Part shown: one piece after another, positions 1-26,773 of the stretch
Layout of the letters: each line of letters opens with the position of its first letter
How positions within the stretch are numbered: position 1 is the stretch's first letter
Virus record (IMG/VR): IMGVR_UViG_2671180849_000019
Direction: 5' to 3' (one strand)
DNA from: a virus
Taxonomy: Duplodnaviria > Heunggongvirae > Uroviricota > Caudoviricetes
DNA: 34,380 nt
Notes under the pieces: generated by a model
Seen by the model: the letters and a program-made list of their open reading frames with translations, nothing else
The model's database searches: none
What the model was told of the DNA's origin: nothing
Position numbers and translations under genes: made by a program

Positions 1-429
1 ATGTACGTATGGAGCGCTAAATCAAATGGCTTTTTCCCCATATCGGAGAAAGAAAAATTTGAGGCATCAGGTCTGTGGCCTGATGATGGTGTAATAGTCA
101 GTGAGGAAGAACATAAAAAGTTATTTATGGATATTCCACCAGGAAAACAGATTGGAACACTGAATGGAAAACCAGCACTGATAGATATTCCTCAGCCGAC
201 CAAAAAGGAATTAATAGCTATTGCTGAAGTTAAAAAATCCCAATTACGGGAAAAAGCTGACAGTGAAATATCCTGGCGTCAGGATGCTGTTGATGCTGAT
301 ATCGCAACTGATGAAGAAACTTCAACTCTCACCGAATGGAAGAAATACCGTGTGCTGCTGATGCGTGTTGATACTTCAACAGCACCCGATATTGAATGGC
401 CTACGCCTCCGGCAGTTCAGGCCAGATGA
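1..429 (+). CDS. tail fibre assembly protein (Tfa/U-like); may be 5'-truncated by the window edge
   Basis: C-terminus ...[23 protein letters not shown] resembles the conserved C-terminus of lambda Tfa / Mu U family chaperones. Convergent with, and overlapping by 29 bp, a second Tfa gene on the opposite strand. Confidence 0.75.
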
Positions 430-994
430 CATCCGGCGCGGTGCTGGTATCTGTTGCCGTCACCGCGTCAATGTAATCCAGCACGGTGTTAAGTCGGGTT
501 GTTTCTGCCTGAGTCAGTTTCCGTCCGGCCTGTAATTTCAGCTGAATCAGACTAATGGAAGCCATTACTGCATCAATCAGTGACTGGCGCTGTGCTTCTG
601 CTGCTTCTACTGCGGCGTTATGCTGTGCCTCAGTATCTGTCACCCATTTCTCACCATCCCATTTATCATATGGCGTTAACGGTGAAAGCGTGACATAACC
701 GTTTTTGATGGCACCGATATAATCCACTGTAACAGCTGCGCCATTTTCTGTTGAGTAAACAGTCTCATTGCGATGGTCTTCTTCATGGCTCCATCCCTTA
801 CCCGTAAATACTGCCACTTTCCCCGGAATGTTTTCGCCCGGGTCAATACCAGTGGAACAGGCGGGCATACTTACGCCAGTATTAATATATTCATCAGACC
901 AGCCCGTATACTCAGATGTTTCAGCATCATAATAAAAACAACGCATATCGCCCGGCACTGTAGCCAGCCCATTTTTATCAAAAACAGGTTTCAT
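401..994 (-). CDS. tail fibre assembly protein (second, inverted copy; partner of the silent fibre cassette)
   Basis: 197-aa ORF with Tfa-like C-terminus (...[20 protein letters not shown]). Its ATG overlaps the stop of the upstream fibre cassette (TAATG). Confidence 0.8.
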
Positions 995-1451
995 TATTTA
1001 GCCCTCACCAGAAAGTTAAATGCAATATTTCGCGGTCTGACAGCAACAAAATTCACACCATCACCCACAGAGTTACTGGTGAAATTAAATCGTGAAAATC
1101 CTGGCTGATTTCCGGCGATGCCATCATGAAAGTTAATTGCGTGTCCCGCACCTCCGCCTATATTCCCGGCAAACTGAGAAAAGTTTGTAGCTTCCTGCCA
1201 GCTTAATAATTCGCGACCACCGTCTGCACCTCGCCCGTCATCCCAGATACGAATGAAATCACCGCGGGCTTCAGGTAATACCAGCGAAGGAAATACTTTC
1301 GCCAGCACAGGATAATCAGTGGCAGAGAATTTCGCGCCGTTGAACTTCAAAAACACCATACTGGACCAGCTGTCGATTACAGTATTTGGCATTGCAGCGG
1401 ACGGCCAGAAGAACGGAACGCCAATAGCTGGAGCACCTTCTCCCAAACCAA
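994..1451 (-). CDS. tail fibre C-terminal cassette (Sv'-like), silent: starts at the invertase crossover site and has no start codon of its own in this orientation
   Basis: Reading frame open from crossover site 1438-1463 to the stop at 994-996. Residues GLGEGAPAIGVPFFWPSAAMPNT... are identical to the distal part of the H ORF at 8317-8700. Confidence 0.65.
1068..1451. repeat. 384-bp segment identical to 8317-8700; identity ends at the invertase crossover dinucleotide
   Basis: Base-by-base comparison of the two stretches in the window shows no mismatch or indel. The flank beyond 1451 (CGTTTAAGAAAA, invertase side) differs from the flank beyond 8700 (GGTATGTGAGAA, H side). Confidence 0.95.
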
Positions 1452-1463
1452 CGTTTAAGAAAA
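1438..1463. other. DNA invertase crossover site (hix/gix/cix-like), TTCTCCCAAACC-AA-CGTTTAAGAAAA
   Basis: 26-bp imperfect dyad with central AA, resembling Hin/Gin recombination sites. Lies 50 bp upstream of the invertase gene and exactly at the repeat boundary. Confidence 0.6.
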
Positions 1464-1512
1464 TGCAGAGGTACCAGCTAACTGGCATCATCTCCGGTTT
1501 TTATTCAGGGGG

Positions 1513-2085
1513 ATGATCATGCTTATTGGCTATGTACGCGTGTCAACAAATGACCAGAACACCGATTTGCAACGTAATGCACTGAACTGCGCGGGATGTG
1601 AGCGGATTTTTGAGGACAAAATCAGTGGCACTAAGTCCGACAGACCGGGGCTGAAAAAACTACTCAGGACACTATCGGCAGGAGACACGCTGGTTGTCTG
1701 GAAGCTGGACAGGTTGGGGCGCAGTATGCGGCATCTTGTTACGCTGATAGAAGAGTTGCGCCAGCGTGGTGTGAATTTCAGAAGCCTGACTGACAGTATT
1801 GATACCAGTACCCCAATGGGCCGTTTCTTTTTTCATGTCATGGGTGCCCTGGCTGAAATGGAACGCGAACTGATAGTTGAACGTACCAGGGCAGGGCTGG
1901 CTGCAGCTCGTGCCAAAGGCAGAGTAGGTGGACGCCGTCCTAAGTTGACCACCGAACAGTGGGCACAGATTGGGCGTTTACTCGAGGCCGGAGAATCAAT
2001 ACAGCGTATTGCACTGATTTTTGATGTAGGCGTTTCTACCATTTATAGAAAATTTCCGGCAAATAAGATCAATGAATCCCCCTGA
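1513..2085 (+). CDS. serine DNA invertase (Pin/Gin/Cin/Hin family)
   Basis: N-terminus LIGYVRVSTNDQNTDLQRNAL with the catalytic Ser in the VRVST context, plus VVWKLDRLGRS, SPMGRFFFHVMGALAEMERELIVERT and a C-terminal HTH; near-colinear with e14 Pin as recalled. Start may be the ATG at 1519. Confidence 0.9.
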   Translation: MIMLIGYVRVSTNDQNTDLQRNALNCAGCERIFEDKISGTKSDRPGLKKLLRTLSAGDTLVVWKLDRLGRSMRHLVTLIEELRQRGVNFRSLTDSIDTSTPMGRFFFHVMGALAEMERELIVERTRAGLAAARAKGRVGGRRPKLTTEQWAQIGRLLEAGESIQRIALIFDVGVSTIYRKFPANKINESP

Positions 2086-2133
2086 ATCAGCATTATGTTG
2101 ATTATCCCTGCAAGCAGACAAATACCGTTATTT

Positions 2134-2151
2134 TGTGTGAATAACGACACA
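2134..2151 (+). promoter_or_regulatory. P2-type late promoter activator dyad (TGT-N12-ACA) upstream of FI
   Basis: TGTgtgaataacgacACA lies about 85 bp upstream of the FI start. P2 late promoters carry this dyad centred near -55 (Ogr-dependent). Confidence 0.45.
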
Positions 2152-2227
2152 ACTGCGCTTAGCTGTTTGTCAGGCACAATCACTTCAACATAGGGCGAAG
2201 CCTAATCCAATCAGGAGGTTCGCCACT

Positions 2228-3400
2228 ATGGCTCAGGATTACCACCACGGGGTGCGCGTTGTTGAAGTCAACGAAGGCACCCGATCTATTACCACGGTGA
2301 GCACCGCCATCGTGGGTATGGTCTGCACGGGCGATGATGCCGATGCAAAAATGTTTCCTCTTAATAAACCCGTGCTGATCACTGATGTGCTGACTGCCAG
2401 CGGTAAAGCGGGTGAGTCAGGTACTCTGGCCCGTTCGCTGGATGCCATCGCTGACCAGGCAAAACCCGTGACCATTGTTGTGCGTGTGCCGCAGGGTGAA
2501 ACGGAAGACGAAACCACGACCAATATCATCGGCGCAGTGACTGCTGAAGGTAAAAAAACAGGTATGAAAGCCCTGTTATCTGCCCAGTCACAGCTCGGCG
2601 TTAAACCGCGCATTCTCGGCGTGCCAGGCCACGACACCAAGGCGGTAGCTACTGAGTTGCTGAGCGTGGCGCAACGCCTGCGTGGATTTGCTTACCTGTC
2701 AGCGTATGGCTGCAAGACAGTGCAGGAGGCGATCACTTACCGCGAAAACTTCAGCCAGCGCGAAGGGATGCTGATCTGGCCTGACTTTACTGGTTGGGAC
2801 ACGGTGCTGAATGCCGAAGCAACGGCATATGCCACCGCCCGTGCGCTTGGTCTGCGCGCCAAAATTGACGAGCAGACCGGATGGCACAAAAGCCTGTCCA
2901 ACGTGGGCGTGAACGGTGTCACCGGAATTTCTGCAGATGTGTTCTGGGATCTGCAGGACCCGGCAACCGATGCAGGTCTGCTGAACCAGAACGACGTCAC
3001 CACGCTTGTGCGTAAAGACGGTTTCCGCTTCTGGGGTTCCCGCTGCCTGAGTGATGACCCGCTCTTTGCCTTCGAAAACTACACCCGCACGGCGCAGGTG
3101 CTGATGGACACGATGGCAGAAGCACACATGTGGGCGGTGGATAAACCGCTTAACCCGTCGCTGGCCCGCGACATTATCGAAGGTATCCGCGCCAAAATGC
3201 GCAGCCTGGTCAGTCAGGGCTATCTCATTGGTGGTGATTGCTGGCTGGATGAGTCGGTGAACGACAAAGACACGCTGAAAGCCGGAAAACTCACCATCGA
3301 CTACGACTACACGCCAGTGCCGCCACTTGAAAACCTGATGCTGCGTCAGCGCATCACCGATCAGTACCTGGTGAATTTCGCCAGCCAGGTCAGCGCGTAA
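2228..3400 (+). CDS. FI: tail sheath protein (gpFI)
   Basis: 390-aa ORF; [19 protein letters not shown]...[12 protein letters not shown]... and C-terminal ...[22 protein letters not shown] match P2 FI as recalled. AGGAGG RBS upstream. Confidence 0.95.
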
Positions 3401-3409
3401 GGGGACAAC

Positions 3410-3925
3410 ATGGCATTACCACGCAAATTAAAACACCTGAACCTGTTTAACGACGGGAACAACTGGCAGGGGATCGTTGAGTCGCTGACGCTGCCGAAAT
3501 TTACCCGCAAATATGAGAAGTATCGCGGCGGCGGAATGCCGGGTGCGGTGGATGTGGATCTGGGGCTTGATGACAGTGCGCTGGACACAGAATTTTCCAT
3601 TGGTGGTACTGAATTGCTGCTGTTTAAACAGATGGGTAAAGCCACGGTGGATGGCATCCAGCTGCGCTTTACCGGCTCTATTCAGCGTGACGATACCGGG
3701 GAAGTGCAGGCCGTGGAGCTTGTCGTGCGTGGACGTCACAAAGAAGTGGATTCCGGCGAGTGGAAGACGGGCGAAAGCAACACCACCAAAGTGACCAGTA
3801 CCAACAGCTACGCGAAGCTGACCATCAATGGTGAGGTGCTCTATGAAGTGGACCTTATCAACATGGTGGAAATTGTGGACGGTGTGGACCTGATGGAAGC
3901 GCACCGCAACGCCCTCGGCCTCTGA
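3410..3925 (+). CDS. FII: tail tube protein (gpFII)
   Basis: 171-aa ORF immediately downstream of FI, P2 FII-like in size and position. Confidence 0.9.
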   Translation: MALPRKLKHLNLFNDGNNWQGIVESLTLPKFTRKYEKYRGGGMPGAVDVDLGLDDSALDTEFSIGGTELLLFKQMGKATVDGIQLRFTGSIQRDDTGEVQAVELVVRGRHKEVDSGEWKTGESNTTKVTSTNSYAKLTINGEVLYEVDLINMVEIVDGVDLMEAHRNALGL

Positions 3926-3979
3926 TATATCTGAACGGCGCGGGATACCGCGCCAGAACCCAATTGACAGGACAGCAAA

Positions 3980-4282
3980 ATGAGCGATAAGCAGACTGAA
4001 AAGACCATTCAACTGGATACCCCCATCAAGCGCGGTAAAACAGAAATCACCGAAATTGTGCTGCGTAAACCGCAGTCCGGTGCGCTGCGCGGTACACGCC
4101 TGCAGGCCATTATGGATATGGATGTAAACGCGATGATGACCGTGATCCCCCGCATCTCCAGTCCGGCACTGACTGCACAGGAAATTGCAGAGATGGACCC
4201 GGCAGATCTCACTGCCATGTCGGTTGAGGTTGTCACTTTTTTGTTGAAGAAGTCGGTGCTTGCCGGTTTACCGACAGCCTGA
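3980..4282 (+). CDS. E: tail assembly chaperone gpE (zero-frame product)
   Basis: 100-aa ORF between FII and T, containing the slippery heptamer TTTTTTG at 4237-4243 near its 3' end. Confidence 0.85.
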   Translation: MSDKQTEKTIQLDTPIKRGKTEITEIVLRKPQSGALRGTRLQAIMDMDVNAMMTVIPRISSPALTAQEIAEMDPADLTAMSVEVVTFLLKKSVLAGLPTA

Positions 4283-4416
4283 CGGTTGACGATCTGGTGG
4301 CAGATATCGCCACCATTTTTCACTGGCCGCCATCCGTTACTGACGTTATGCCGCTGACCGAAGTGCTGGAATGGCGGTATAAAGCGATTCAGAGAAGCGG
4401 GGCCAACGATGAGTGA
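3980..4416 (+). CDS. gpE+E' fusion predicted from programmed -1 ribosomal frameshift at TTTTTTG (4237-4243)
   Basis: The -1 frame is open for 58 codons from the slip site (FVEEVGACRFTDSLTVDDL...EWRYKAIQRSGANDE) and stops at TGA 4414-4416, overlapping the T start at 4409. Same layout as P2 E/E'. Confidence 0.6.
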
Positions 4417-7400
4417 TAACAACCTGCGTCTGCAGGTCATTCTTAATGCGGTTGACAAGCTCACCCGTCCATTTCGATCTGCGCAGGCCAGTTCAAGAGA
4501 ACTGGCTGCTGCTGTCAAAAAATCCCGCGATGCAATAAAGCAGCTTGATCAGGCCGGGAGCAGTCTGGACAGCTTCCGAAAGCTGCAGGCAGAAAATCAG
4601 AAATTAGGCGACAGGCTGAACTATGCCCGCCAGCGTGCAAATTTGCTCAGTCAGGAACTGGGAGCGATGGGGCCGCCTTCGCAACGTCAGGTTGTTGCTC
4701 TGGGCCGTCAACGGCTGGCTGTTCAGCGCCTGGAAGAACGCCAGAAAAAGCTGCAGCAGCAGACGGCGCTTGTGCGTGCTGAACTGTACCGGGCGGGAAT
4801 TTCTGCGAAAGACGATGCGGGAGCAACTGCCCGTTTAGCCCGTGAAACATCACGTTATAACCAGGAACTTTCGAAACAGGAGGCGCGGCTGAAGCGACTG
4901 GGGGAAGCTCAGCGCAGGATGAATGCAGCGCGTGCCAGTTATGCCCGTTCGCTGGAGGTGCGTGATCGTATTGCAGGTGCCGGAGCCACCACCACGGCTG
5001 CAGGGCTGGCAATGGGTGCGCCAGTGATGGCGGCAGTAAAAAGCTATACCAGCATGGAAGATGCCATGAAAGGTGTGGCAAAGCAGGTCAATGGTCTGCG
5101 TGACGATAATGGCAACCGCACTGCACGTTTTTATGAAATGCAGGATGCCATCAAGGCTGCCAGCGAACAGTTGCCGATGGAAAACGGTGCGGTGGACTTC
5201 GCTGCACTGGTTGAAGGTGGTGCGCGCATGAACGTCGCAAACCCTGACGACAGCTGGGAAGATCAGAAACGTGACCTGCTGGCCTTCGCCAGTACGGCAG
5301 CAAAGGCGGCAACAGCCTTTGAGCTGCCAGCGGATGAACTGTCAGAAAGTCTGGGGAAAATCGCCCAGCTCTACAAAATCCCCACCCGCAATATTGAACA
5401 GCTCGGTGATGCGCTGAACTATCTGGATGATAACGCCATGTCGAAAGGGGCAGACATCATTGATGTGATGCAACGTCTGGGCGGTGTGGCTGACCGTCTG
5501 GATTATCGTAAAGCGGCGGCGCTGGGTTCCACCTTCCTGACACTGGGCGCTGCGCCAGAGGTTGCAGCCAGTGCAGCAAACGCGATGGTGCGTGAATTGT
5601 CCATTGCCACCATGCAAAGCAAGAGTTTCTTTGAAGGGATGAATCTGCTGAAACTCAATCCTGAAGTGATTGAAAAGCAGATGACGAAGGATGCGATGGG
5701 AACCATCCAGCGCGTGCTGGAGAAGGTAAACGCGCTGCCGCAGGACAAGCGCCTGTCTGCCATGACTATGTTGTTTGGTAAAGAGTTTGGCGATGACGCG
5801 GCGAAACTGGCAAACAACCTGCCGGAACTGCAGCGTCAGTTAAAACTGACAGCGGGCAATGATGCGCTCGGCTCCATGCAGAAAGAATCCGACATTAACA
5901 AGGATTCACTTTCTGCGCAGTGATTGCTGGTCAAAACCGGAGCGCAGAACACCTTCAGCAGCCTGGGCGAAACGCTGCGCCAGCCGCTGATGGATATTCT
6001 GTACACGGTGAAAAGCGTCACGGGGGCGTTGCGTCGCTGGGTGGAAGCTAACCCGGAACTGACAGGCACACTGATGAAAGCATCGGCTGTTGTGGCTGCG
6101 GTTACCGTCGGCCTCGGCACCTTAGCGGTGGCGCTGGCTGCAGTGCTGGGGCCGCTGGCAGTGATCCGTCTGGGATTCTCTGTGTTGGGTATCAAAACGT
6201 TATCTTCCGTTACGGCAGCAGTAACTCGAACCAGCAGCGCGTTGTCCTGGCTGGCTGGCGCACCACTGGCACTGCTGCGACGCGGGCTTGCTTCATCGGG
6301 CAACGCCGCAGGTTTACTTACTGCGCCGTTGTCGTCTTTGCGCCGCACGGCATCACTGACGGGAAATGTCCTGAAAACTGTAGCAGGTGCGCCGGTTGCA
6401 CTTTTGCGGTCTGGATTATCCGGTTTACGTGCGGTTGCTGTGATGTTTATGAATCCACTGGCAGCACTACGCGGCGGGCTGGCTGCCGCAGGCACGGTGC
6501 TGCGAGTACTGGCATCTGGTCCACTGGCGATGTTGCGCGTTGCCCTGTATGCCGTATCTGGTCTGTTAGGTGCTCTGCTCAGTCCGATAGGTCTTGTGGT
6601 TACTGCACTGGCGGGTGTGGCACTGGTTGTCTGGAAATACTGGCAACCCATCACCGCATTTCTCGGTGGCGTGGTGGAAGGATTCAAAGCGGCGGCAGGT
6701 CCCATCAGTGCAGCGTTCGAACCGCTTAAGCCTGTGTTCCAGTGGATTGGTGACAAAGTGCAGGCGCTGTGGGGCTGGTTTACTGATCTGCTGACGCCCG
6801 TTAAGTCGACTTCTGCCGAACTGCAGAGCGCAGCGGCAATGGGGCGACGATTCGGGGAGGCACTGGCGGAAGGGCTGAATATGGTTATGCATCCGCTGGA
6901 CTCCCTGAAATCTGGCGTTTCCTGGTTGCTGGATAAACTCGGCATTGTCAGTAAAGAGGCTGCAAAGGCGAAACTGCCGGAAAGCGTGACGCGTCAGCAA
7001 CCTGCGACGGTGAATGCAGACGGTAAAGTGATGATGCCATCGGGTGGTTTTCCGTCATGGGGATATGGCTTTGCGGGGATGTATGACAGCGGCGGCTATA
7101 TCCCGCGCGGGCAGTTTGGCATCGTCGGTGAAAACGGGCCGGAAATTGTTAACGGCCCGGCAAATGTGACCAGCCGGAGAAATACAGCTGCACTGGCTGC
7201 CGTTGTTGCCGGAATGATGGGCGTTGCTGCCGCGCCTGCAGAGCTTCCACCGTTGCACCCTTTGGCACTTCCCGCGAAAGGCGGCGAAGCGATGGTGAGT
7301 CGTGCAGCCACTGTGCCGCCCGTTCAACGGATTGAGGCACCGATGCAGATCATCATTCAGACGCAGCCAGGACAAAGTGCGCAGGATATTGCGCGGGAGG

Positions 7401-7486
7401 TGGCCCGCCAGCTTGATGAACGTGAACGTAGGCTGAAGGCAAAAGCCAGGAGTAACTACAGCGATCAGGGGGGATACGACGCATGA
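4409..7486 (+). CDS. T: tail tape measure protein (gpT-like), interrupted by an in-frame TGA at 5921-5923 (possible pseudogene, readthrough or sequence error)
   Basis: ORFs 4409-5923 and 5924-7486 are in the same frame, separated only by TGA. Coiled-coil-rich N half and Ala/Leu/Gly-rich hydrophobic repeats in the C half are typical of tape measure proteins. Gene sits between E' and U. Confidence 0.8.
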
Positions 7487-7968
7487 TGATGGTGCTGGGA
7501 TTGTACGTGTTTATGCTGCGCACCGTGCCGTATCAGGAGCTGCAGTATCAACGCAGCTGGCGACATGCGGCAAACAGCCGGGTAAACCGACGTCCGTCCA
7601 CGCAGTTTCTGGGACCGGACAACGACATGCTGACGCTTTCCGGTGTTCTTATGCCGGAGATAACAGGTGGCAGGCTGTCGTTGCTGGCACTGGAGCAGAT
7701 GGCAGAACAGGGGAAAGCATGGCCCCTGATTGAAGGCAGCGGCACGATTTATGGCATGTATGTGATTGAGGGACTGAATCAGACTAAAACGGAGTTTTTC
7801 CGCGACGGTATGCCGCGCCGGATTGAGTTCACCCTGTCGCTCAAACGGGTGGATGAATCCCTGTCCGATATGTTCGGTGATCTCAGTGCGCAACTGAATA
7901 ATCTGCAGGAAACGGCAACGTCTGCCTTAAGCGATATCAGTAAAACGGTGGGAGGGCTGCTGTCGTGA
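7483..7968 (+). CDS. U: tail protein gpU
   Basis: 161-aa ORF overlapping the T stop (ATGA), in the P2 gpU position. Confidence 0.9.
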   Translation: MMMVLGLYVFMLRTVPYQELQYQRSWRHAANSRVNRRPSTQFLGPDNDMLTLSGVLMPEITGGRLSLLALEQMAEQGKAWPLIEGSGTIYGMYVIEGLNQTKTEFFRDGMPRRIEFTLSLKRVDESLSDMFGDLSAQLNNLQETATSALSDISKTVGGLLS

Positions 7969-8305
7969 ATTTCAGCTCTGAACTGCTTAACAAAAGCAAC
8001 AAAACTCCGGCATTCAGCATCAGTATTGAGGGTAGGGATATCACCACTGTGCTGGATAACCGCCTGATGAGTCTGACTCTGACGGACAATCGGGGCTTTG
8101 AAGCAGACCAGCTTGATCTGGAGCTGGACGATGCCGACGGGAAAATCGTGCTGCCGCGCCGTGGTGCGGTCATTACGCTGGCGCTGGGCTGGAAGGGGCA
8201 GCCGCTTTTCCCGAAAGGGGCATTCACGGTGGACGAGATTGAACACACTGGCGCACCGGACCGCCTGACTATCCGGGCGCGAAGTGCTGATTTTCGGGAA
8301 ACGCT
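7965..8305 (+). CDS. D: tail protein gpD (late control D family), 3'-truncated by the N-gap
   Basis: ORF starts with start/stop overlap to U and is open for 113 codons until the N run at 8306. Confidence 0.8.
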
Positions 8306-8316
8306 NNNNNNNNNNN
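8306..8316. other. assembly gap (11 N)
   Basis: Literal run of n characters in the sequence. Confidence 1.
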
Positions 8317-8700
8317 CAGAGTTACTGGTGAAATTAAATCGTGAAAATCCTGGCTGATTTCCGGCGATGCCATCATGAAAGTTAATTGCGTGTCCCGCAC
8401 CTCCGCCTATATTCCCGGCAAACTGAGAAAAGTTTGTAGCTTCCTGCCAGCTTAATAATTCGCGACCACCGTCTGCACCTCGCCCGTCATCCCAGATACG
8501 AATGAAATCACCGCGGGCTTCAGGTAATACCAGCGAAGGAAATACTTTCGCCAGCACAGGATAATCAGTGGCAGAGAATTTCGCGCCGTTGAACTTCAAA
8601 AACACCATACTGGACCAGCTGTCGATTACAGTATTTGGCATTGCAGCGGACGGCCAGAAGAACGGAACGCCAATAGCTGGAGCACCTTCTCCCAAACCAA
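8317..8700. repeat. second copy of the 384-bp fibre-cassette segment (identical to 1068-1451), here fused to the constant part of H
   Basis: Exact identity from 8317 up to the crossover dinucleotide at 8699-8700, then divergence. Confidence 0.95.
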
Positions 8701-9748
8701 GGTATGTGAGAAGACCAGCTACATCCTTTCCACTCAAATTGGTAAGCGTATTGTCCAGCGGTTGTTTACCTGCCAGCGCATTAAGCATTGTCGTGGCAAA
8801 GTTCGGATCATTCCCCAGTGCCGCCGCCAGTTCGTTCAGTGTATCCAGTGCAGCAGGTGCAGAACCCACCATTCCTGCAATCGCCGATTTCACAAAAGCC
8901 GTAGTGGCAATCTGTGTATTGTTGACCGACTGCGCCGCCGTGGGGGCTGTTGGCGTTCCGGTGAGTGCCGGACTCGACAACGGTGCTTTTAGTGCCAGCG
9001 CATTGTTAATGGTGGTACTGAAATTCGGATCATTGTTAATGGCTGCGGCTATTTCTTTCAGCGTGTCCAGCGTGGCTGGCGCACCATTAATAAGGGCCGT
9101 CAGTGCCGCCTGTACAAACGCAGTGGTCGCAACCTGCGTGGTATTATTCCCCGCCGCTGGCGTTGGCGCTTTGGGGGTTCCGGTAAATGTCGGGCTGGCT
9201 TTTGGCGCGTACTGTGAATGCGGGTCCGGTGCGGCAAGATGTTTTGCCATCTGATCATCCGCGTACACCTTCAGCTCCAGTGCCTTGTCATCCACATACT
9301 TGCGGGTTGCCAGCACTACAGCAGGGTCGATTTTCAGGGTGATATTGTCCGTGCTGCTGGTAATCAGCACCATGCGCACGGTCTGAGTGCGCCCGCTACC
9401 TTCAGCCAGTTGCGGCTTATAGCTTTCCGGGCAGTTGCCCACGGCAATCAATGCCCCGGACTCATCAAACAAGCCCACTTCACGTATCCACCAACCGCCC
9501 TCGTTTTCAGGGATCACCTGTTCGGCAATAATCTGGCTGCTGTTCTGCGGGTCGATATAAAGCATATTCAGCGCAGCCCGGCGTTTCTCATTTACCAGTG
9601 CCGTCTGCTTTGCGTCCTGCGTTGGCAATACTCCACCGCCATCGCCCACCGCCATATGGGTAATTTTTAGCGGCACACCGAGCGCGGCGGCGCTGGCAAG
9701 TTTCGCCGCGCCAATATCCGTCAGCAGGGTATAAAATTTTGTGCTCAT
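8317..9748 (-). CDS. H: tail fibre protein (gpH-like), 3' end truncated by the N-gap
   Basis: N-terminus MSTKFYTLLTDIGAAKLA...MAVGDGGG...AVGNCPESYKPQLAEGSGRTQTVRMV and the repeated SPxLTGTPTAPT / DTLNELAAALGNDPNFATTM motifs match P2 H as recalled. The ORF-track continuation below 8317 reads through the N run and antisense gpD and is not real. Confidence 0.9.
8687..8712. other. DNA invertase crossover site, TTCTCCCAAACC-AA-GGTATGTGAGAA (H-proximal copy)
   Basis: Same inner half-site and central AA as the site at 1438-1463, different outer half-site. Lies inside the H coding sequence at the constant/variable junction (...TYL|GLGEGAP...). Confidence 0.6.
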
Positions 9749-10350
9749 GGATTCACTCTCATTGTGTCAATAACATGGACCGCCCCGCCTTCATGCGCGG
9801 TGCCACCGGAAATAATCGTTTCGTTGATATACGGATAGATCGTGATTTCTTCGCCAAGATAGCTGGCGGCTCCCACCCAATGCGGGCCGCTGGTCTGCAG
9901 ATTGATGGACATGCCGATCATGTGGCGGCTACATGGTTTGGCATCGCTTATCAGTCGCTCAAGTTCCAGATAGGTATCTTCAGTGATGCCCTGGTCCTGC
10001 ACGCCGATATCCAGGCGAAACGTGCCCGGTGTTTCTCCGGTCTGCCACCACTCAATAATGCGGATCAGGAATCCGAACGGCTCCACCACCCGCCGCACGG
10101 CACTGGTGGTCCCTTTATGCTGATGAATATAAAAAGCATCCTTCACCACCTGGCGCTTGACGCTTTCTGTCCAGCCCTCGTCCCAGCGATCCACAGAGAA
10201 CGCCCAGGCGAGATAAGGCAGGAAACTGACCGGACAGGTTGCCGGATTCCACAAGTCACGAAGCGGCACCTGCAGATCAGAAATCCCGCTGCAGGTTTGC
10301 GCCAGTCGGCGCTCCAGTGGTGTTGAACCCGGTGGCAGCAAACTATTCAT
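9745..10350 (-). CDS. I: baseplate protein gpI
   Basis: LLPPGSTPLERRLA...LWNPATCPVSFLPYLAWAFSVDRWDEGW...FYIHQHKGT matches P2 gpI as recalled. Confidence 0.9.
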   Translation of the reverse strand: MNSLLPPGSTPLERRLAQTCSGISDLQVPLRDLWNPATCPVSFLPYLAWAFSVDRWDEGWTESVKRQVVKDAFYIHQHKGTTSAVRRVVEPFGFLIRIIEWWQTGETPGTFRLDIGVQDQGITEDTYLELERLISDAKPCSRHMIGMSINLQTSGPHWVGAASYLGEEITIYPYINETIISGGTAHEGGAVHVIDTMRVNP

Positions 10351-11251
10351 CCGTTCCTCCGTTGGTTACGCTCCACTGCGTACATGATGCCGCCTGTGTT
10401 TTGTTCAGGACCACATCCGCCAGAGGAGAAGCCAGCTCCACACGCTGCACCCCCTCAACATGCAGGGCGGCAAAGATGGCGCTACGGCGAATATCCCGAC
10501 CAAGACGCGTCTGACTGGCGATGTACTTCTGCAGGCTGGCTTTTGCCGCTGCCATTACCGGCTCTGCTTCCGGTCCAGGATAGAGAAAAATGGTGGCTTC
10601 CACGCGATACGGGATGATTTCTGCGCTGCAAACCGTAAGACGGTCAGCCACCGGGCGGACGTTCTCACTGTTCAGAGCTTTTTCCACCACGTCCAGCAGG
10701 TCTTTTTCTGCAGTTCCATCGCCTTCGCGGCTAAGGACAGTCAGCACCACCTCTGCAGGTGCCGGGCTGGTTGCACTGGCATCCGCCACCCGACCGTCGG
10801 CGCTTCGGGCATGAAATTCATAAGCTGCAGTTGGCCCCGCAACAGAAAGCCCTTCAAAGGCTGCAGGCACACGCAGGCGTAACGCTTCATCGCTTTCCAT
10901 CACAGCTGCAACGGGCGGCACAGCATCATTATCAGCAGGCGTCACCGTCAGGCGTGTCACGTTGTAGTTGGCAGCGAGCTGGTCAAGATCGCCGCCCATC
11001 GCGTAAGCCACCATCACCGCCTGCGCGGCTTCGTTAATGCGCTGGCGCAGAAGCAACTCACGGTAAGCATTCTCCTGCAACAATTTAGTGGCGGGTTCAG
11101 ATTCCAGTTCCAGCGTGCGGATCACTGCTTCCTGCTCATCTTTCGGATGAAGCGCCACAAATTCTGCCTTGCGTTCGGCAAGCAGCGTCTCAAAGTCCGG
11201 CACATCCACAATCTGCGGTGCAGGCAACTGCGAAAGGTCAATCACTGCCAT
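10343..11251 (-). CDS. J: baseplate assembly protein gpJ (start taken at MAVIDLSQLPAP)
   Basis: MAVIDLSQLPAPQIVDVPDFETLLAERKA...LQENAYRELL...VEGVQRVELASPLADVVL is P2 J-like. The ORF track starts 13 codons upstream. Confidence 0.9.
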   Translation of the reverse strand: MAVIDLSQLPAPQIVDVPDFETLLAERKAEFVALHPKDEQEAVIRTLELESEPATKLLQENAYRELLLRQRINEAAQAVMVAYAMGGDLDQLAANYNVTRLTVTPADNDAVPPVAAVMESDEALRLRVPAAFEGLSVAGPTAAYEFHARSADGRVADASATSPAPAEVVLTVLSREGDGTAEKDLLDVVEKALNSENVRPVADRLTVCSAEIIPYRVEATIFLYPGPEAEPVMAAAKASLQKYIASQTRLGRDIRRSAIFAALHVEGVQRVELASPLADVVLNKTQAASCTQWSVTNGGTDE

Positions 11252-11597
11252 TCTCTGCTCCTGTTGATACGGAAAGGGACACAGGCACACCGTTATTCCG
11301 CCGCCCGGTCAGCTCCACCACCATTGAACCGTCAAAATTGCTGTTGATGGTGATGGAATCCAGCGTCAACCGTGGCTCCCAGCGACTCAGCGCCACATAC
11401 ACTGCCGACATGACCTGCAGGCGTAATGCCGGATTTTGTGGCTGATCTATCAGTGCCGACAGCAGGGAACCATATTCCCGGCGGGCAATACGGCTACCCT
11501 GCGGTGTCAGCAGAATGTCCCGCACCGACTGGCGCAGATGATCAATATCAGTAATGACTTTGCCGCTGGTATTGTTCATCCCGCTATAAAGCGTCAT
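11238..11597 (-). CDS. W: baseplate protein gpW
   Basis: 119-aa ORF, P2 W-like in size and position between V and J. Confidence 0.85.
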   Translation of the reverse strand: MTLYSGMNNTSGKVITDIDHLRQSVRDILLTPQGSRIARREYGSLLSALIDQPQNPALRLQVMSAVYVALSRWEPRLTLDSITINSNFDGSMVVELTGRRNNGVPVSLSVSTGAENGSD

Positions 11598-12172
11598 ACC
11601 GGGCCTCCGGTTGTATCGCCGCCTTTCAGGACGCCAGTATGCTGATGCGCATCAACCACGATCCCGTTAGAACTCATCGCTCCGCCGCCCTGGGTAACGC
11701 CACCATTGATCACCACTTCGCTGTTAATGCGCGTGCGGTCAGCCTCCAGTACAAACTCACTGGTTTTCATGGTGATGTTGTCAGCAGCCTCAATGACCAT
11801 TGATTTGATGCCCCTGACATACCAGCGCCCGGTGGCGGGTTCGTATTCAAACCAGCCACCGTCAGGATGTTCTGTCACGCAGGCGTCCGCCGACGTCGAC
11901 GGTGGTGCGAACTGATTCGAATAGACAGCGGGCAGCGCAAAGGCGGTTTCCAGATTGCCGCCCAGACTCAGCAGCACCACCTGCTCACCTTCCGATGGTC
12001 GCCACCATGTACGGGCATTCCCGGCACGCAGCGTCAGCCAGCTGATCCAGTTGGTTTCAAGCTCGCCCGTTTTCACCCGGCAAAGCCAGTTTTCCCTGTC
12101 CACTTCGGTGACTACCCCTGTGCGGATCAGGTTGGTGATAAGGCGCATGATTTCGGTTAATTGTGCGTTCAT
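11594..12172 (-). CDS. V: baseplate spike/hub protein gpV
   Basis: 192-aa ORF; ...HTGVLKGGDTTGGPV C-terminus and position match P2 V. Confidence 0.85.
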   Translation of the reverse strand: MNAQLTEIMRLITNLIRTGVVTEVDRENWLCRVKTGELETNWISWLTLRAGNARTWWRPSEGEQVVLLSLGGNLETAFALPAVYSNQFAPPSTSADACVTEHPDGGWFEYEPATGRWYVRGIKSMVIEAADNITMKTSEFVLEADRTRINSEVVINGGVTQGGGAMSSNGIVVDAHQHTGVLKGGDTTGGPV

Positions 12173-12218
12173 AGGGAAAGGTTGCCATCAGGGGAAGAAA
12201 GGCGGCAGTGCTGCAACT

Positions 12219-12236
12219 TGTATCAGTGCTGATACA
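12219..12236 (-). promoter_or_regulatory. TGT-N12-ACA dyad between S and V (candidate late promoter activator site)
   Basis: TGTatcagtgctgatACA in the 68-bp S-V intergenic region, where P2 has its PV late promoter. Confidence 0.4.
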
Positions 12237-12240
12237 AAGA

Positions 12241-12687
12241 TCACCCCGCCAGCCATTGCAGAATCATGTCGCGGGTCATTGCCTCAACATCATCATTTAC
12301 ACCCAGAAGGCGACGCTCTGCGTAACGCACCTCCGGTCCCTTACGACTGACGCGATCTCGCAGGCCGTAATGGTGAACGCGGGCAATGCGCTGCACCTTG
12401 CCTTCAAACTGCACGCTGGCAGAGTCGGTGCTGGCGGCAGTTTTCAGGTATTTTGTGGTGCGCAGCTTTGCAAACATCTGACGTTTGATACGGCCTTTTT
12501 TACTGCGTGCTGTTACCCGTCGCGGTTCATAGCTGCTGCCGTCAGGGTTGCGCTGCATCCTGATATTCTGCTGCTGTGTCCGGCGAAGTTCCTGCGCCAG
12601 CTGGCGCATCATGCGGCTTCTCGAGGCTGGTTCCAGATTCGCCAGCAAGGCACTCAGCCAGTCGTCCACCTTCTGCAGTTCAGCCAC
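12241..12687 (-). CDS. S: tail completion protein gpS
   Basis: 148-aa ORF in the P2 S position. Confidence 0.85.
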   Translation of the reverse strand: MAELQKVDDWLSALLANLEPASRSRMMRQLAQELRRTQQQNIRMQRNPDGSSYEPRRVTARSKKGRIKRQMFAKLRTTKYLKTAASTDSASVQFEGKVQRIARVHHYGLRDRVSRKGPEVRYAERRLLGVNDDVEAMTRDMILQWLAG

Positions 12688-13132
12688 GTTTCACCGTCCA
12701 CATTTCTTCAGGTGCATCAGGTTCCGCTATAGCTTCAACGCTCGACACACTGCCGTCAGTGCTGACCAGCACACGTTCCGTCAGTTGCAGGTTCAGGCTG
12801 ATATCACAGACATCGTTGCGCAGAATATCCACCTCAAAGGTGAATAGCTTTTCCCGTAACGCCGGGTTATTGATGGCATCGGGCTGGTTATCCCTCAGCC
12901 ACAGCAAAACCGGGGCCATCAGCAGATTCTGGTCGCCGCTGAAATCCTCAATCACCGCGTTCAGTGTGTAACGGTACTCCCACGACATGGAGCTGGCCCC
13001 CGTGGCAACCAGCGAACCGTTATCCACAAACAGATGCAGTTTGTCCGGGTTATTGCGGACATAAGGCACCGCTTTATTGAGGGCGTGGCGCAGGGATTGT
13101 GGTTTGTTCACTGTTTCGCTCCTGACACGCAA
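12680..13132 (-). CDS. R: tail completion protein gpR
   Basis: 150-aa ORF in the P2 R position, overlapping S. Confidence 0.85.
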   Translation of the reverse strand: MRVRSETVNKPQSLRHALNKAVPYVRNNPDKLHLFVDNGSLVATGASSMSWEYRYTLNAVIEDFSGDQNLLMAPVLLWLRDNQPDAINNPALREKLFTFEVDILRNDVCDISLNLQLTERVLVSTDGSVSSVEAIAEPDAPEEMWTVKRG

Positions 13133-13364
13133 TAATCATGTCCACTTTGTCTGCACAGACCGCCCAGGCGGCCTCCGTTTCATCCAGCAACGCGTTCAGA
13201 TCACCGTTAGTGCGCGGCGTTGCCTGATCCAGCCGACACGGCGTCACTCGCGGACAACCACTGACGGTAAGCCATACCTCCGGTGAGTGCCGGACGTTTC
13301 CGCAGCCGGATAATGTCAGCAGGCAAAGGAGTATCAGCCCAGCGGCGTAAATCCTCGTTCTCAC
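13074..13364 (-). CDS. lysC: LysC / Rz1-like outer-membrane lipoprotein (spanin), overlapping the 3' end of lysB in another frame
   Basis: Signal peptide with lipobox (MRTRIYAAGLILLCLLTLSGC). Starts inside lysB and extends past its stop, as in P2 lysB/lysC. Confidence 0.7.
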   Translation of the reverse strand: MRTRIYAAGLILLCLLTLSGCGNVRHSPEVWLTVSGCPRVTPCRLDQATPRTNGDLNALLDETEAAWAVCADKVDMIIACQERNSEQTTIPAPRPQ

Positions 13365-13635
13365 GTTTCAGTTCCTCGATCCGGTGTTGTCGTTGTCTCA
13401 GCAGCGTGCTGGTCTGTTCTGCTTCGGCATAGAGCCGCGCCTGCTCCCGGTTATTGGTTTCAGTCAGAATGGACAGGCTGATAAGCTGGCTGTTGCTCTT
13501 TGCCAGTGCCTGGCTTTTGCTCTGCAGCTCGTCTGCCTGCGTGCTGATGGTCTGGCTGGCATCAGCCAGCCGCCACGTCTGCCAGCCCAGCGCCGCCAGT
13601 AATAACGCCAGCACAACCAGCAGCAACCGGTTCAT
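13207..13635 (-). CDS. lysB: LysB / Rz-like inner-membrane spanin
   Basis: N-terminal TM segment (LLLVVLALLLAALGW) followed by a charged coiled-coil region; position after lysA. Confidence 0.75.
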   Translation of the reverse strand: MNRLLLVVLALLLAALGWQTWRLADASQTISTQADELQSKSQALAKSNSQLISLSILTETNNREQARLYAEAEQTSTLLRQRQHRIEELKRENEDLRRWADTPLPADIIRLRKRPALTGGMAYRQWLSASDAVSAGSGNAAH

Positions 13636-14009
13636 GCTGCTACCTGTTTCGCCATCTGATTACGGGTGATCCAGAAGGCAATAACGGTCAGTAGATAAAA
13701 GACCAGGGTAATAGCCCACCCCGTCCAGGCGAGACTTACAACAATCAGCAATCGCATCACCCAACTGATAAATACGTTTTCTTTTCGGGTAATTGTCTTC
13801 AGTAAAGATGCCCTTAACTCCTGCCAGAGCGGGCCATTCTTAATTAACGCAGCCAGTGCTACCGGAATTACCGCCCATGTCAGCAAACAGGCTACCCAAA
13901 CGCCGGACGCTGCCAGTACCGGAAAAATCCCCTGCGGATACACCATTGCTGCGATTAACAGCGCCATCCATAACATCAGAAACAGTCCGCTGATTAATTT
14001 CTTTTTCAT
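13632..14009 (-). CDS. lysA: LysA-like membrane protein (lysis timing); start taken at MKKKLISGLF
   Basis: Multi-TM small protein directly downstream of the endolysin. The ORF-track start at 14081 would overlap the endolysin by 70 bp. Confidence 0.6.
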   Translation of the reverse strand: MKKKLISGLFLMLWMALLIAAMVYPQGIFPVLAASGVWVACLLTWAVIPVALAALIKNGPLWQELRASLLKTITRKENVFISWVMRLLIVVSLAWTGWAITLVFYLLTVIAFWITRNQMAKQVAA

Positions 14010-14010
14010 T

Positions 14011-14523
14011 TCAGTTTGCTCCCTGTAAACACCAGGCCATCTCCCGCGCACGGCGGTTATCCAGCCCCTGATTAAACACACCTTTTACATAAACCCAGCG
14101 CGGCAACTGTCGGCACGCATCCGCCCAGAGCCGCTGATTGAGTAATTTCACCAGTGTGGAACTGCAGGCATTGCCCGTTCCCACGTTGAAGGCAAACGAC
14201 ACCACCGCGTCATACACCTTTTGCGGCGGCTGTTGCTTCACACACCTTTCCAGTGCCCGCTCCACACGCAGCACGTTGGAAATCAGCCCTTCTGCTGCCT
14301 GTCGTTCCGTGATTGTTTTGCCGGGAATGACGCCCGATGTATTACCAATGCCGTCGGTCCAGACACCTGCACTGCACTGATACGGCTGCAGACGGCAGCC
14401 TTCGTAATCGGCAATTAGTTTCAGCCCCTCCACGGAGGTGTGAAGCTGCTGAAAACCCGGCAACGTAGCTGCAATAGCCAGCACGGCCCCGACAAGGCAG
14501 CGTTTAACGATTGATGGATTCAT
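14011..14523 (-). CDS. K: endolysin, lysozyme family with N-terminal signal-anchor-release (SAR) domain
   Basis: N-terminal hydrophobic segment (CLVGAVLAIAATLPG) and motifs GVWTDGIGNT, FAFNVGTGN and QLPRWVYVKG, resembling phage 21/P1-type SAR lysozymes. Confidence 0.85.
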   Translation of the reverse strand: MNPSIVKRCLVGAVLAIAATLPGFQQLHTSVEGLKLIADYEGCRLQPYQCSAGVWTDGIGNTSGVIPGKTITERQAAEGLISNVLRVERALERCVKQQPPQKVYDAVVSFAFNVGTGNACSSTLVKLLNQRLWADACRQLPRWVYVKGVFNQGLDNRRAREMAWCLQGAN

Positions 14524-14719
14524 AGTCCTCCCGCGAGATCTGCCCGTCGCGCAGAAGCTGGTAGGCTTTATGTTTGTAGTACCAGTTGATAGCCAGCATC
14601 AGCACACCAATCATCAGGCCGCCCAGCGTTGAGGCATCCTTGATGGACAAATCGCCCAGCCAGGCCAGCACGACGGCGATGCAATACGTGATAAAGGCGC
14701 TGATTCGCTCAAGCGTCAT
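14504..14719 (-). CDS. Y: holin (small two-TM protein, possibly pinholin)
   Basis: 71 aa with two hydrophobic segments and a charged C-terminus, immediately upstream of the endolysin. Confidence 0.7.
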   Translation of the reverse strand: MTLERISAFITYCIAVVLAWLGDLSIKDASTLGGLMIGVLMLAINWYYKHKAYQLLRDGQISREDYESINR

Positions 14720-14722
14720 AAT

Positions 14723-14926
14723 TCAGTCCCATAGCTGGACGGTCTGCACGGTGGTGGTGGTCGGAATGTCCGGCAGCTCCACCTGCAGCCCGTGAGGTAA
14801 AAAGGGGCCGTATTCGGCAAGCCCCGGATTTGCCTTCAGTACCTGCTCCGTGACACCCTGCGTGCGCCCGTAATGACGCCAGCAAAGTGCGTCCACCGTG
14901 TCATACTGATGCGCACGCACTTTCAT
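14723..14926 (-). CDS. X: tail protein gpX
   Basis: 67-aa ORF in the P2 X position between L and the holin. Confidence 0.8.
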   Translation of the reverse strand: MKVRAHQYDTVDALCWRHYGRTQGVTEQVLKANPGLAEYGPFLPHGLQVELPDIPTTTTVQTVQLWD

Positions 14927-15453
14927 CAGATAAGCTCCACTGTGCAGTGCGGCGCATCCTGCACCCGGCTGATGGCCCAGCGGGCGTCACGCCATAAATC
15001 ACCGCTTGCTTCCGCCAGTTCCTCGCCTCGCTTCGCACCGGATGCCGTGGCGTCATAGTCCTGGTAACGTTCGTTGAGCATGGCGCGTGCCCAGCAGTAA
15101 ACCGCGTTGAAATAGTGCTGAATGCGCTCGCTTTTGCCGTCCAGTTGTTCCGCCGGGACTTCTGCCAGCGAGGCATACCCCAGCATCTGCTGGCGTCTGC
15201 GAAACTCATACAGCTCTGCGTTGACCTCCGAAATTGCCGACAGCGCAACCTGCTTTAAACGCGGCTGCGTCACCGTGCCGTCAGTGCGCATGACACTGCG
15301 AAACTCCGACAGGTCCACATCAGGCCAGAACGGCGTATTTCTGATGATTTCCGCCTGTTCCGGTGCCTGTTCTGGCGCAACAAACTTCATGCTGCTTTCT
15401 CCTGAAATAGAGGGCGGTGGACGGGGTTTTGATGTGGCAGTGCCTTTCGCCAC
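14926..15453 (-). CDS. L: head completion protein gpL
   Basis: ...NAELYEFRRRQ...DLWRDARWAISRVQDAPHCTVELI resembles P2 L. Start could instead be the internal MKFVAPEQ at 15390. Confidence 0.85.
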   Translation of the reverse strand: MAKGTATSKPRPPPSISGESSMKFVAPEQAPEQAEIIRNTPFWPDVDLSEFRSVMRTDGTVTQPRLKQVALSAISEVNAELYEFRRRQQMLGYASLAEVPAEQLDGKSERIQHYFNAVYCWARAMLNERYQDYDATASGAKRGEELAEASGDLWRDARWAISRVQDAPHCTVELI

Positions 15454-15485
15454 CCCGTGCCGCCCGTGCGCGGGGGCACGTTCTG

Positions 15486-16136
15486 TCAGCGGCTGTCATT
15501 GCGCAGTCTGCGCTCCAGCTGCTGTTTGTCTTTTTTCACGCCACAGCGGGGATCGAGCTGTAACGCATGGTTGAGATGATTAAGGGCAGACGCCGGATTG
15601 CCTTCACTCAGGACCGCGCCAATCGCTTTATGCAGACGCGCCCGTGACTGATCCGGCATATCCAGACCGTCTGTCAGCTCCAGCGTCTGCAGCAACAGAT
15701 CGGCATCAAAGCCGGTGGCAGCAAGCATTGCGCTCTGCGCCGCGTCTGCCATTTCCTCTGCCAGCACGGTCTGCACGTTGCGGTTACCCAGCGGCATCAC
15801 CCAGCCATGACGCAGGGCATGACGCCCGATCTCCAGCGCCCCGGCATAATCTCCGGCATCAATGCGCCACAGCATCACGTACATCAGCACGTCATCCTGT
15901 TGAGCGCCTCCGGCAGCCAGAACGCCCTCCGCCCAGGCGGCATATTTCGGCAGCAGCTCCACCTTTATTTCCGCTTTTTTCACCGTGGACTGAACGCCCT
16001 TGAGACGGCGGCGGTCTTCCGCCAGTTGCAGCAGCATCAGGTCATAGCCCGACGCGTGGCGAACACTGCCGCCCTCACGGGCGGCCTGTTCAGCCTGAAC
16101 GCGCAGGCGATGCTGCCGTGCGGGACTCAGGCTCAT
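15486..16136 (-). CDS. M: terminase endonuclease (small) subunit gpM
   Basis: 216-aa ORF between N and L, in the P2 M position. Confidence 0.85.
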   Translation of the reverse strand: MSLSPARQHRLRVQAEQAAREGGSVRHASGYDLMLLQLAEDRRRLKGVQSTVKKAEIKVELLPKYAAWAEGVLAAGGAQQDDVLMYVMLWRIDAGDYAGALEIGRHALRHGWVMPLGNRNVQTVLAEEMADAAQSAMLAATGFDADLLLQTLELTDGLDMPDQSRARLHKAIGAVLSEGNPASALNHLNHALQLDPRCGVKKDKQQLERRLRNDSR

Positions 16137-16139
16137 GGA

Positions 16140-17198
16140 TTACGCTCCGGTTTCTGCTGCGGCGGCGCTGAAGTCGCCAATCTGGATGTTTTCCACCAGT
16201 GCGGCGCAGCGGTAGTCCTCAACCACATAGGCTTCGTTAACGGATTCAAAATTTTCAATCCGGTCACGTTTCGGGTTGTCGATAACTGAACGGCGGCGGG
16301 TGTCTTCCTGCCAGTAGATGGACAGGTTATCCAGACGGGTGATTAGCAACGCATTCGGCGGGAAGAACGGCGCACGCACGGCCTGCAGGCCACCCATGCG
16401 TTTCTGACTGATGATCATATCGGCAGCGAGTTTTTCACTGTTTTCCTGCTCTTTGTTGACCAGCGGGAAATACTTGTCAGACAGCAGTTCACGACCGCAA
16501 ATCACCACCAGATCGTCATCGTCCTGGTAGACCACGTCGATAAGCTCATTAACGGCATCCATCACCACGGCGTCCAGGTTGGCATATTCGCCACCTTTAC
16601 CGACTTTCACCGCGCCCGGTGTGGTTTCACCGCCCGTGGTGGTGCTGCCCATGACGTGATCCGGTGCATCCTCACGGATTTTCTGCAGCCAGCCTTTATT
16701 CACATCCTGCAGCAGCGGGTTTTCGCTACGGTTGGAGGTTTTCGCACGCTTCACGCCGTTAAAGCCGATCATGATGCGGTCCAGTGCCTGACGTTTCACG
16801 ATGGCGTTACGGATACGCACCTGGAAATCCTGAAACTTCGCCCACAGGTCCAGCTTCGCGTAGGTCAGCACCGTGTCAAAGTTAGTCTGCTCGCATTTAT
16901 ATTCCACATCGACCATCAGCGTCGGATCGACAGGCTCACGCTCTTTCGCGGTGGTATCAGTGGTTCCGGCAATGGTGCTGCCAACACCCAATCCAAGCAG
17001 CTGACCGGACTGCTCAGTCACTGGCGTAACGTTAATCAGCGTCAGGAATGCGGCGGACTGCTGGATCTGGTCTTCCAGCGTCTGCTGTACAGACGGCTCT
17101 ACGGTGAATTTGCTGGACAGTTCTTCAACTGCCACACCGTTCAGACGCGCCAGCTGCTGCAGGTAAGCGTTAAAAGCAAAGCGGGTATTCTTCTTCAT
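16140..17198 (-). CDS. N: major capsid protein gpN
   Basis: 352-aa ORF, P2 N-like in size and position. Confidence 0.9.
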   Translation of the reverse strand: MKKNTRFAFNAYLQQLARLNGVAVEELSSKFTVEPSVQQTLEDQIQQSAAFLTLINVTPVTEQSGQLLGLGVGSTIAGTTDTTAKEREPVDPTLMVDVEYKCEQTNFDTVLTYAKLDLWAKFQDFQVRIRNAIVKRQALDRIMIGFNGVKRAKTSNRSENPLLQDVNKGWLQKIREDAPDHVMGSTTTGGETTPGAVKVGKGGEYANLDAVVMDAVNELIDVVYQDDDDLVVICGRELLSDKYFPLVNKEQENSEKLAADMIISQKRMGGLQAVRAPFFPPNALLITRLDNLSIYWQEDTRRRSVIDNPKRDRIENFESVNEAYVVEDYRCAALVENIQIGDFSAAAAETGA

Positions 17199-17214
17199 CA
17201 GGTTTTGTGCTCCA

Positions 17215-18027: not shown

Positions 18028-18105
18028 GAGCCGTGCTCCGTTAGAAAAAACTTACTGGAGCCTTATGGTTGCGGTGATGGGGGCAGTGAAACAATGCGCG
18101 GTATT

Positions 18106-18123
18106 TGTACCGACAACCACACA
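18106..18123 (-). promoter_or_regulatory. TGT-N12-ACA dyad in the O/P divergent promoter region (candidate PO activator site)
   Basis: TGTaccgacaaccacACA, centred about 87 bp upstream of the O start codon. Confidence 0.4.
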
Positions 18124-18169
18124 AACCGCAGGCGGGGAAAGCCGTCATTCAAGGCTGTAGGTTTGTGCC

Positions 18170-22659: not shown

Positions 22660-22818
22660 CTGACATCCCTGTTTAGCGGATTATGAATAAGTTAGGTTCC
22701 ATTTTATCCAAACATTGTCAAATACTCTAAGATTTATTAGATGATAGAGCGATACTGTATGCATGTCCAGCAATCAAATCAATATATAACTCTTATATGA
22801 CTTAGCGCGCGCTCGTAT

Positions 22819-22830
22819 CCCCGCCACGCC
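22819..22830 (-). other. possible cos-related sequence (GGCGTGGCGGGG on the minus strand)
   Basis: 12-nt exact match to the 5' part of the 186 cohesive end as I recall it (GGCGTGGCGGGGAAAGCAT); the remaining 7 nt do not match. Confidence 0.25.
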
Positions 22831-22852
22831 TGCCCGCTTTATGTAGTGGTTT

Positions 22853-22954
22853 TCATGCACCTGCATGACATAAGCAAAAGCACGCCAGTTCTGGCTGACT
22901 TCAGCAAAAACGATCCTCAAACGATCATGCGATCTCATGCGTCATAGTCATGCG
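22853..22954. promoter_or_regulatory. array of TCATGC(A/G) motifs (one 16-bp palindrome plus three direct repeats) overlapping a cluster of three GATC sites
   Basis: Palindrome TCATGCAccTGCATGA at 22853-22868; TCATGCG at 22925, 22935 and 22948; GATC at 22912, 22923 and 22931, all in the intergenic region between the two divergent cargo operons. Confidence 0.3.
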
Positions 22955-26532: not shown

Positions 26533-26542
26533 AAAAGTCACC

Positions 26543-26731: not shown

Positions 26732-26773
26732 CTTTCCTCCTATGACACCAAAGCGATACTGTATACATAACCA

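Follow-up and report, generated by a model that had tools for sequence, protein, structure and literature searches.

The 11-N gap in a 186/P2-like prophage is probably a scaffolding artefact of its invertible tail-fibre segment

The window analysed here is a stretch of 34,380 nucleotides of a tailed-phage record (IMG/VR IMGVR_UViG_2671180849_000019), and all positions refer to it. Gene identities were taken from two annotated relatives to which the window was mapped, L001 (CP019275) and L002 (complete chromosome NZ_CP020107). Two blocks of genes are separated by the only run of Ns in the window, a scaffold gap of 11 N at 8306–8316, which lies inside the interval 8280–8330 singled out by the earlier note. 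The left block comprises a tail-fibre cassette and a DNA invertase, followed on the plus strand by the tail module FI, FII, E (+E'), T and U (2228–7968) and an incomplete gene D, denoted D'; by the mapping onto L002, FI through D' occupy 2228–8305. The right block begins with the tail-fibre gene H on the minus strand and continues, on the same strand, with I, J, W, V, S, R, the lysis genes, X, L, M, N and O (9745–18027). Beyond O it contains P and Q (plus strand), a cargo region, replication and 186-type regulatory genes, and the integrase. The late blocks are convergent and meet 3'-end to 3'-end at the gap. The earlier note described FI–D as running on the plus strand into the gap and H–O as running on the minus strand away from it; the strands are as described, whereas "away" holds only in coordinate order, since H–O are transcribed towards the gap. 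The first three nucleotides of the window are the ATG of tfa1 and the last three (34378–34380) are the integrase stop codon; the stretch was therefore seemingly cut at gene boundaries, and its parent record may be longer.

The late genes of coliphage 186 and P2 are ordered ...V-W-J-I-H-G-FI-FII-E-T-U-D-ogr. The window contains the colinear modules of a 186/P2-like (Peduoviridae) prophage, namely Q,P / O-N-M-L-X-lysis-R-S-V-W-J-I-H / FI-FII-E-T-U-D, with the invertible fibre cassette and the DNA invertase (1–2085) occupying the place of P2 G-Z/fun. Each block is colinear with its counterpart in L001, L002 and L083 (complete genome NZ_CP145714), all annotated prophages, at 95–99.8% identity, and the two are jointly colinear with them only once one block is inverted; after one block is turned, gene order and strands match L002 and L083 gene for gene. 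The prophage differs from 186 and P2 in that a two-cassette invertible segment and an invertase replace G and Z/fun, and in the PDC-M03 and SIR2-HerA modules of its accessory locus. Two features of the family are incomplete in the window: ogr is absent, and D ends at codon 113. The missing 3' part of D and the missing ogr are sequence absent from the window and are no evidence against membership of the 186/P2-like family.

The accessory locus (21008–26154) lies between the portal gene Q and the replication genes and holds two defence modules recognized by PADLOC with E-values of 1e-93 to 1e-267. These are PDC-M03 A and B on the minus strand (21745–22659 and 21008–21748, respectively, with a HIRAN domain in B), and SIR2 and HerA on the plus strand (23240–24298 and 24274–26154). 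Additionally, the tape-measure gene T (4409–7486) contains an in-frame TGA at 5921–5923 (codon 505), where fifteen relatives have TGG. The same TGA is found in L007, an IMG/VR contig, and is therefore probably real; the prophage may be tail-defective owing to this nonsense codon.

Both genes that abut the gap are truncated, as the earlier note had observed. Gene D (late control/baseplate hub) starts with a GTG at 7965 on the plus strand and is cut off at 8305, 113 codons and two nucleotides later, although D has 366 residues in L007, in which it extends past the cut point of the window. On the other side of the Ns, H occupies the minus strand between 9748 and 8317, where its 477 codons remain open without a stop; its N-terminus matches the Pfam family Phage_tail_fib. 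Two open reading frames nevertheless cross the gap. One encodes 603 residues (7937–9748, minus strand), reading H through the Ns into the antisense strand of D, and the other encodes 130 residues (7965–8357, plus strand), reading D' through the Ns into the antisense strand of H. Both are chimeras, which bears out the warning that gene calls spanning the gap are unreliable.

The gene at 1513–2085 (plus strand) encodes an intact, 190-residue serine DNA invertase of the Gin/Pin family. It matches the Pfam families PF00239 (Resolvase) and PF02796 (C-terminal HTH_7), and aligns over its full length to the structure of Mu Gin (3UJ3, E=1.5e-91; 4M6F also gives an E-value of about 1e-91). Two 26-bp crossover sites of the Gin/Hin/Cin/Pin type are found in the window, and only two. 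The first (TTCTCCCAAACCAA|CGTTTAAGAAAA) is located at 1438–1463, directly upstream of the invertase gene, and the second (TTCTCCCAAACCAA|GGTATGTGAGAA) at 8687–8712, inside H. Both are on the plus strand, i.e. in direct orientation. In contrast, in four complete reference loci the two sites form an inverted pair, 1.7–1.9 kb apart, with arms of 20–32 nt and without long repeats. The inverted sites of a Gin/Hin/Cin/Pin-type segment are thus not seen in the window as drawn, and are obtained after the left block is turned. The direct sites therefore expose an error in the scaffold.

The remaining parts of the segment are recognizable on the invertase side of the left block. The window begins with a tail-fibre assembly chaperone gene, tfa1 (1–429, plus strand), followed by a second one, tfa2 (401–994, minus strand; Pfam Caudo_TAP), which is the cognate of the alternative fibre C-terminus Hv2. 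Hv2 itself is also on the minus strand, with its last 24 codons and stop at 994–1067 and its proximal 384 nt (128 codons) at 1068–1451, where it is joined to the invertase side (state 1). Opposed cassettes, tfa1 on the plus strand and tfa2 with Hv2 on the minus strand, are therefore present within 1–1451. The other fibre tip, Hv1 (277 nt, cognate to tfa1), lies directly upstream of tfa1, at the other end of the segment, in the relatives L003, L004, L083 and L088 (NZ_CP035874.1, strain B2C), and has no match in the window. Right of the gap, the constant part of H (8701–9748, minus strand, 349 codons) is joined to a second copy of the 384-nt Hv2 stretch (8317–8700, minus strand), 100% identical to the first (state 2). 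Both segment states occur among relatives, one in L003 and L004 and the other in L083 and L088, and both the H|Hv2 and the Hv2|invertase junctions are present in this single record. The fibre-side break is located within a Gin/Pin-type invertible segment.

The Hv2 module is widespread. Among 5,426 complete E. coli genomes, 651 contain a homologue of 8317–8700, prophage Sp1 of O157:H7 Sakai being one example, and homologues are also found at 95 places on plasmids; the module moves between unrelated prophage types. In L088 (5259–6458), a complete genome with a deleted relative of this prophage, the Hv2 end of the segment borders on a truncated terminase gene, so that the deletion endpoint lies at or near a crossover site.

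The duplication is exact. Positions 8317–8700 equal 1068–1451 at 384 of 384 nucleotides in the same orientation, and the identity extends from the first base past the Ns to the centre of the crossover site. In L083, which has the same cassettes in a complete genome, both copies of the window map to one stretch (12298–12684), and no internal repeat was found in the fibre region of that locus. Among the 651 complete genomes, the 384 nt occur at a median of one place per genome, with up to four places in some. When the reverse complements of 8317–10000 and 1–1067 are joined in this order, they align to L083 as one ungapped HSP of 2751 nt at 99.4% identity; the join of 8317 to 1067 is also aligned across in L088, L087, L084 and L005, and it yields an H protein of 501 residues that ends in a stop codon. 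Position 1067 is therefore the real neighbour of 8317, and the 24 codons at 994–1067 are the true continuation of H. A simpler account, in which the C-terminus of H is merely missing between 8317 and position 1, was dropped, as the sequence right of the gap duplicates 1068–1451. All that is missing between the blocks is the alternative fibre tip, about 277 nt; beyond them, D codons 114–366, ogr and attR are missing.

The order and orientation of the two blocks were compared with those of relatives. In L002, positions 1439–8305 of the window map to the minus strand (99.8% identity), and 8685–20958 and 26301–34380 map to the plus strand; the left and right blocks are likewise on opposite strands in L001 and L083. 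The invertase-FI...D and H-I...O blocks are on opposite strands in 22 of 22 N-free loci, with a spacing of 0.9–2.7 kb, a count that includes all compared loci holding both blocks with no N between them. In the window, contrary to all of these, the invertase-FI and H-I blocks map to the same strand. The sequence across the gap (7500–9100) was used as a query against 5,426 complete E. coli genomes and 50,697 phage records. One half of it or the other is matched in 1,862 of the genomes and in 60 phage records, and the D'|H' junction occurs neither in any of the 5,426 genomes nor in any of those 60 phage records. The junction is thus contradicted by finished genomes of close relatives, in agreement with the proposal of the earlier note that the scaffold join is probably wrong. 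That note had also proposed that the left block must be both inverted relative to the right block and placed after it. The inversion is upheld by L002, L001, L083 and the 22 loci; a separate move is not needed, as the blocks are already neighbours. Turning either block round would restore the gene order.

The last 52 nt before the gap occur in 75 IMG/VR contigs, every one of which goes on into D, and L007, the closest relative of the left block (99.986% identity), is uninterrupted past 8305 into full D, ogr and the ybjL flank. The natural continuation of D' at 8305 is accordingly predicted to be D codons 114–366, then ogr and the ybjL flank. The ends of three whole IMG/VR contigs fall 3–145 nt beyond the D breakpoint of the window; this closeness to 8305 suggests a repeat boundary with another P2-like element. 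One contig, L035 (IMGVR_UViG_2579778535_000009), which ends 3 nt past this breakpoint, carries in its positions 1–400 the reverse complement of D' (window 7928–8305) fused, with no N, to the interior of replication gene A (window 27568); L035 represents a P2-like remnant that was rearranged, or else a contig of chimeric origin.

The topology of the window is shared by a second scaffold. IMG/VR UViG_2698536341_000022, comprising L005 and L008, is 99.98–99.99% identical to the window and has the same arrangement; its join corresponds to window position 963, a single N, and window position 8022, and it has a duplicate of its own, of 329 nt. The breakpoints of the two scaffolds differ by 283 nt on the D side and by 105 nt on the fibre side. 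With the topology constant and the breakpoints shifting, an artefact fits better than one real junction. Across assemblies, the fibre-side breakpoints are scattered (963, 977, 1068, 1123 and 1375 in window coordinates). A single-N join in the same fibre gene H is also seen at position 419 of L062 (IMGVR_UViG_2698536450_000021), where the middle of the H constant part adjoins a tfa fragment, the remaining locus being in normal orientation.

The gap is best explained, with a probability that we put at about 0.85, as an assembly artefact in an ordinary 186/P2-like prophage, in which neighbouring contigs were joined with one of them reversed and both states of the invertible segment mixed. The N-gap junction is not a biological feature. 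New in relation to the earlier note is the likely cause, a break within the invertible fibre segment with its 384-nt end duplicated. The prophage would have been assembled as two contigs, 1–8305 and 8317–34380, that are true neighbours. Between H and the invertase would lie an invertible segment of ~1.73 kb, Hv1-tfa1 / tfa2-Hv2, flipped by the Gin/Pin-type invertase between the two 26-bp sites. The right contig, with "H constant part | Hv2", would represent the flipped state, and the left contig, with "Hv2 | invertase", the unflipped state. The most likely reason for the same 384-nt segment end being assembled onto both flanks is that the two orientations coexisted in the sequenced culture, and both inversion states were presumably present in the sequenced DNA. 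In clonal E. coli cultures with P2-like prophages, coexisting orientations of the fibre segment have been measured from sequencing reads (PMC4272514).

The scaffolder probably erred in the following manner. Read pairs or overlaps that link the segment of the left contig to H of the right contig would have set both contigs in the same orientation, which would place the invertase-FI...D' part between them, back to front; the large overlap thereby implied would then have been replaced by a short run of Ns. Linking by orientation through the duplicated segment is preferred because, by reasoning, it alone reproduces the observed topology. Ordinary distance-aware paired-end logic, joining the end of D' to the end of Hv2, was considered and, on reasoning only, does not reproduce it. 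In the orientation of the phage, the corrected prophage would read int ... I, H constant part, crossover site, segment, second site, invertase, FI ... D', the missing D codons 114–366, ogr and attR. The corrected segment would contain Hv1 (277 nt, missing here), tfa1, tfa2 and Hv2, in either orientation.

Several observations speak against this explanation and give weight to its rivals. A scaffolder that checks distances should reject the implied overlap of ~7 kb. Moreover, both contigs reach into Hv2 and neither into Hv1, so that a simple majority rule would favour a real inverted repeat over a mixture of states. The C segment of phage P1 is flanked by long inverted repeats. The join could accordingly be mis-oriented and the 384-nt duplicate nevertheless be a real inverted repeat of that style around the segment, at which the contigs broke. 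The end of the right contig coincides exactly with the point at which the identity would have to stop (8317 corresponds to 1068), and Hv2-type sequence at both contig ends, with no Hv1, is seen in L005/L008 as well as in the window. However, single copies of the 384 nt, together with a distinct 277-nt Hv1 next to tfa1, are found in L083 and L088, which are complete, and in L084 and L087, which are N-free metagenome sequences; the reference segments examined are bounded solely by the 20–32-nt arms; the median of one place per genome does not suit a repeat; and the scattered breakpoints of other assemblies reveal no common repeat boundary. No relative carries such a repeat, and a real one is unlikely in this genome. 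We consider it very unlikely that the blocks come from two P2-like prophages of the same genome that carry the same fibre cassette in different states and are not neighbours. The break inside D would suggest a second D-like sequence in the genome, and the Hv2 module is present in many prophage types at up to four places per genome, but the closest relatives of both blocks, L005 and L008, belong to one scaffold. L007, the nearest relative of the left block, terminates in the ybjL flank, the integrase of the right block matches that of L002, a prophage at this very locus (ybjL/rcdA), and the blocks are complementary, overlapping in the 384 nt only.

The recurrence of the wrong topology in two assemblies might, alternatively, reflect a real rearrangement common to both. 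We regard as highly improbable a rearrangement common to this lineage and UViG_2698536341_000022, in which the invertase-FI...D' module is inverted relative to the segment and the segment end is duplicated. That the junction as drawn is itself real is scarcely credible; in that case a rearrangement, such as an inversion of the 7–8 kb tail module, would have put D' beside the fibre segment, and the Ns would conceal no more than a few bases. In its favour, another scaffold (99.99% identical) has the same topology, and rearranged P2-like remnants do occur, such as L035, in which D' is fused to gene A. Against it are the absence of the junction from all 5,426 complete genomes and from the phage records, and the different breakpoints of the two scaffolds on both sides of the join; such a junction would, moreover, require a duplicated segment end and leave both invertase sites direct. 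Inversion by the invertase at a pseudo-site in D was rejected, as no crossover-like sequence is present in full D even when up to three mismatches are allowed.

The preferred reading, an assembly artefact at an invertible segment, places this locus beside known systems, including the Mu G, P1 C and e14 P segments and the P2-like prophage loci of E. coli E2348/69 (PMC4272514). It resembles them in having an adjacent serine invertase (Gin-like at E=1.5e-91) and two crossover sites of the TTCTC..AAACCAAGGT.. type, one of which lies inside the fibre gene, such that inversion swaps the fibre C-terminus and its chaperone. The direct sites and the doubled segment end differ from these systems, and are properties of the scaffold rather than of the phage. 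The gap likewise resembles short-read scaffolding errors at invertible sequences, with a run of Ns between truncated genes, a duplicate at a contig end, an orientation against all finished genomes, the same error in L005/L008 and a 1-N join in L062. The mode of error is here a reconstruction.

The main value of this result is in annotation hygiene, as the 603-residue and 130-residue reading frames that cross the gap are chimeras. The prophage appears rearranged and would be scored as broken, although its halves are ordinary neighbours, and the 384-nt duplicate is liable to be mistaken for a repeat. Since the error recurs in a second public scaffold, and a further one shows a 1-N join in H, invertible fibre segments seem to be a recurring pitfall when P2-like prophages in provirus catalogues are scaffolded from short reads. 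If the rearrangement shared with UViG_2698536341_000022 were true, it would inactivate a prophage that is otherwise intact and also has a nonsense codon in its tape-measure gene. The presence of both junction types in one record suggests active inversion of the fibre segment by the Gin-like invertase in the sequenced culture, a behaviour already known for such prophages, whose biology is otherwise not unusual here.
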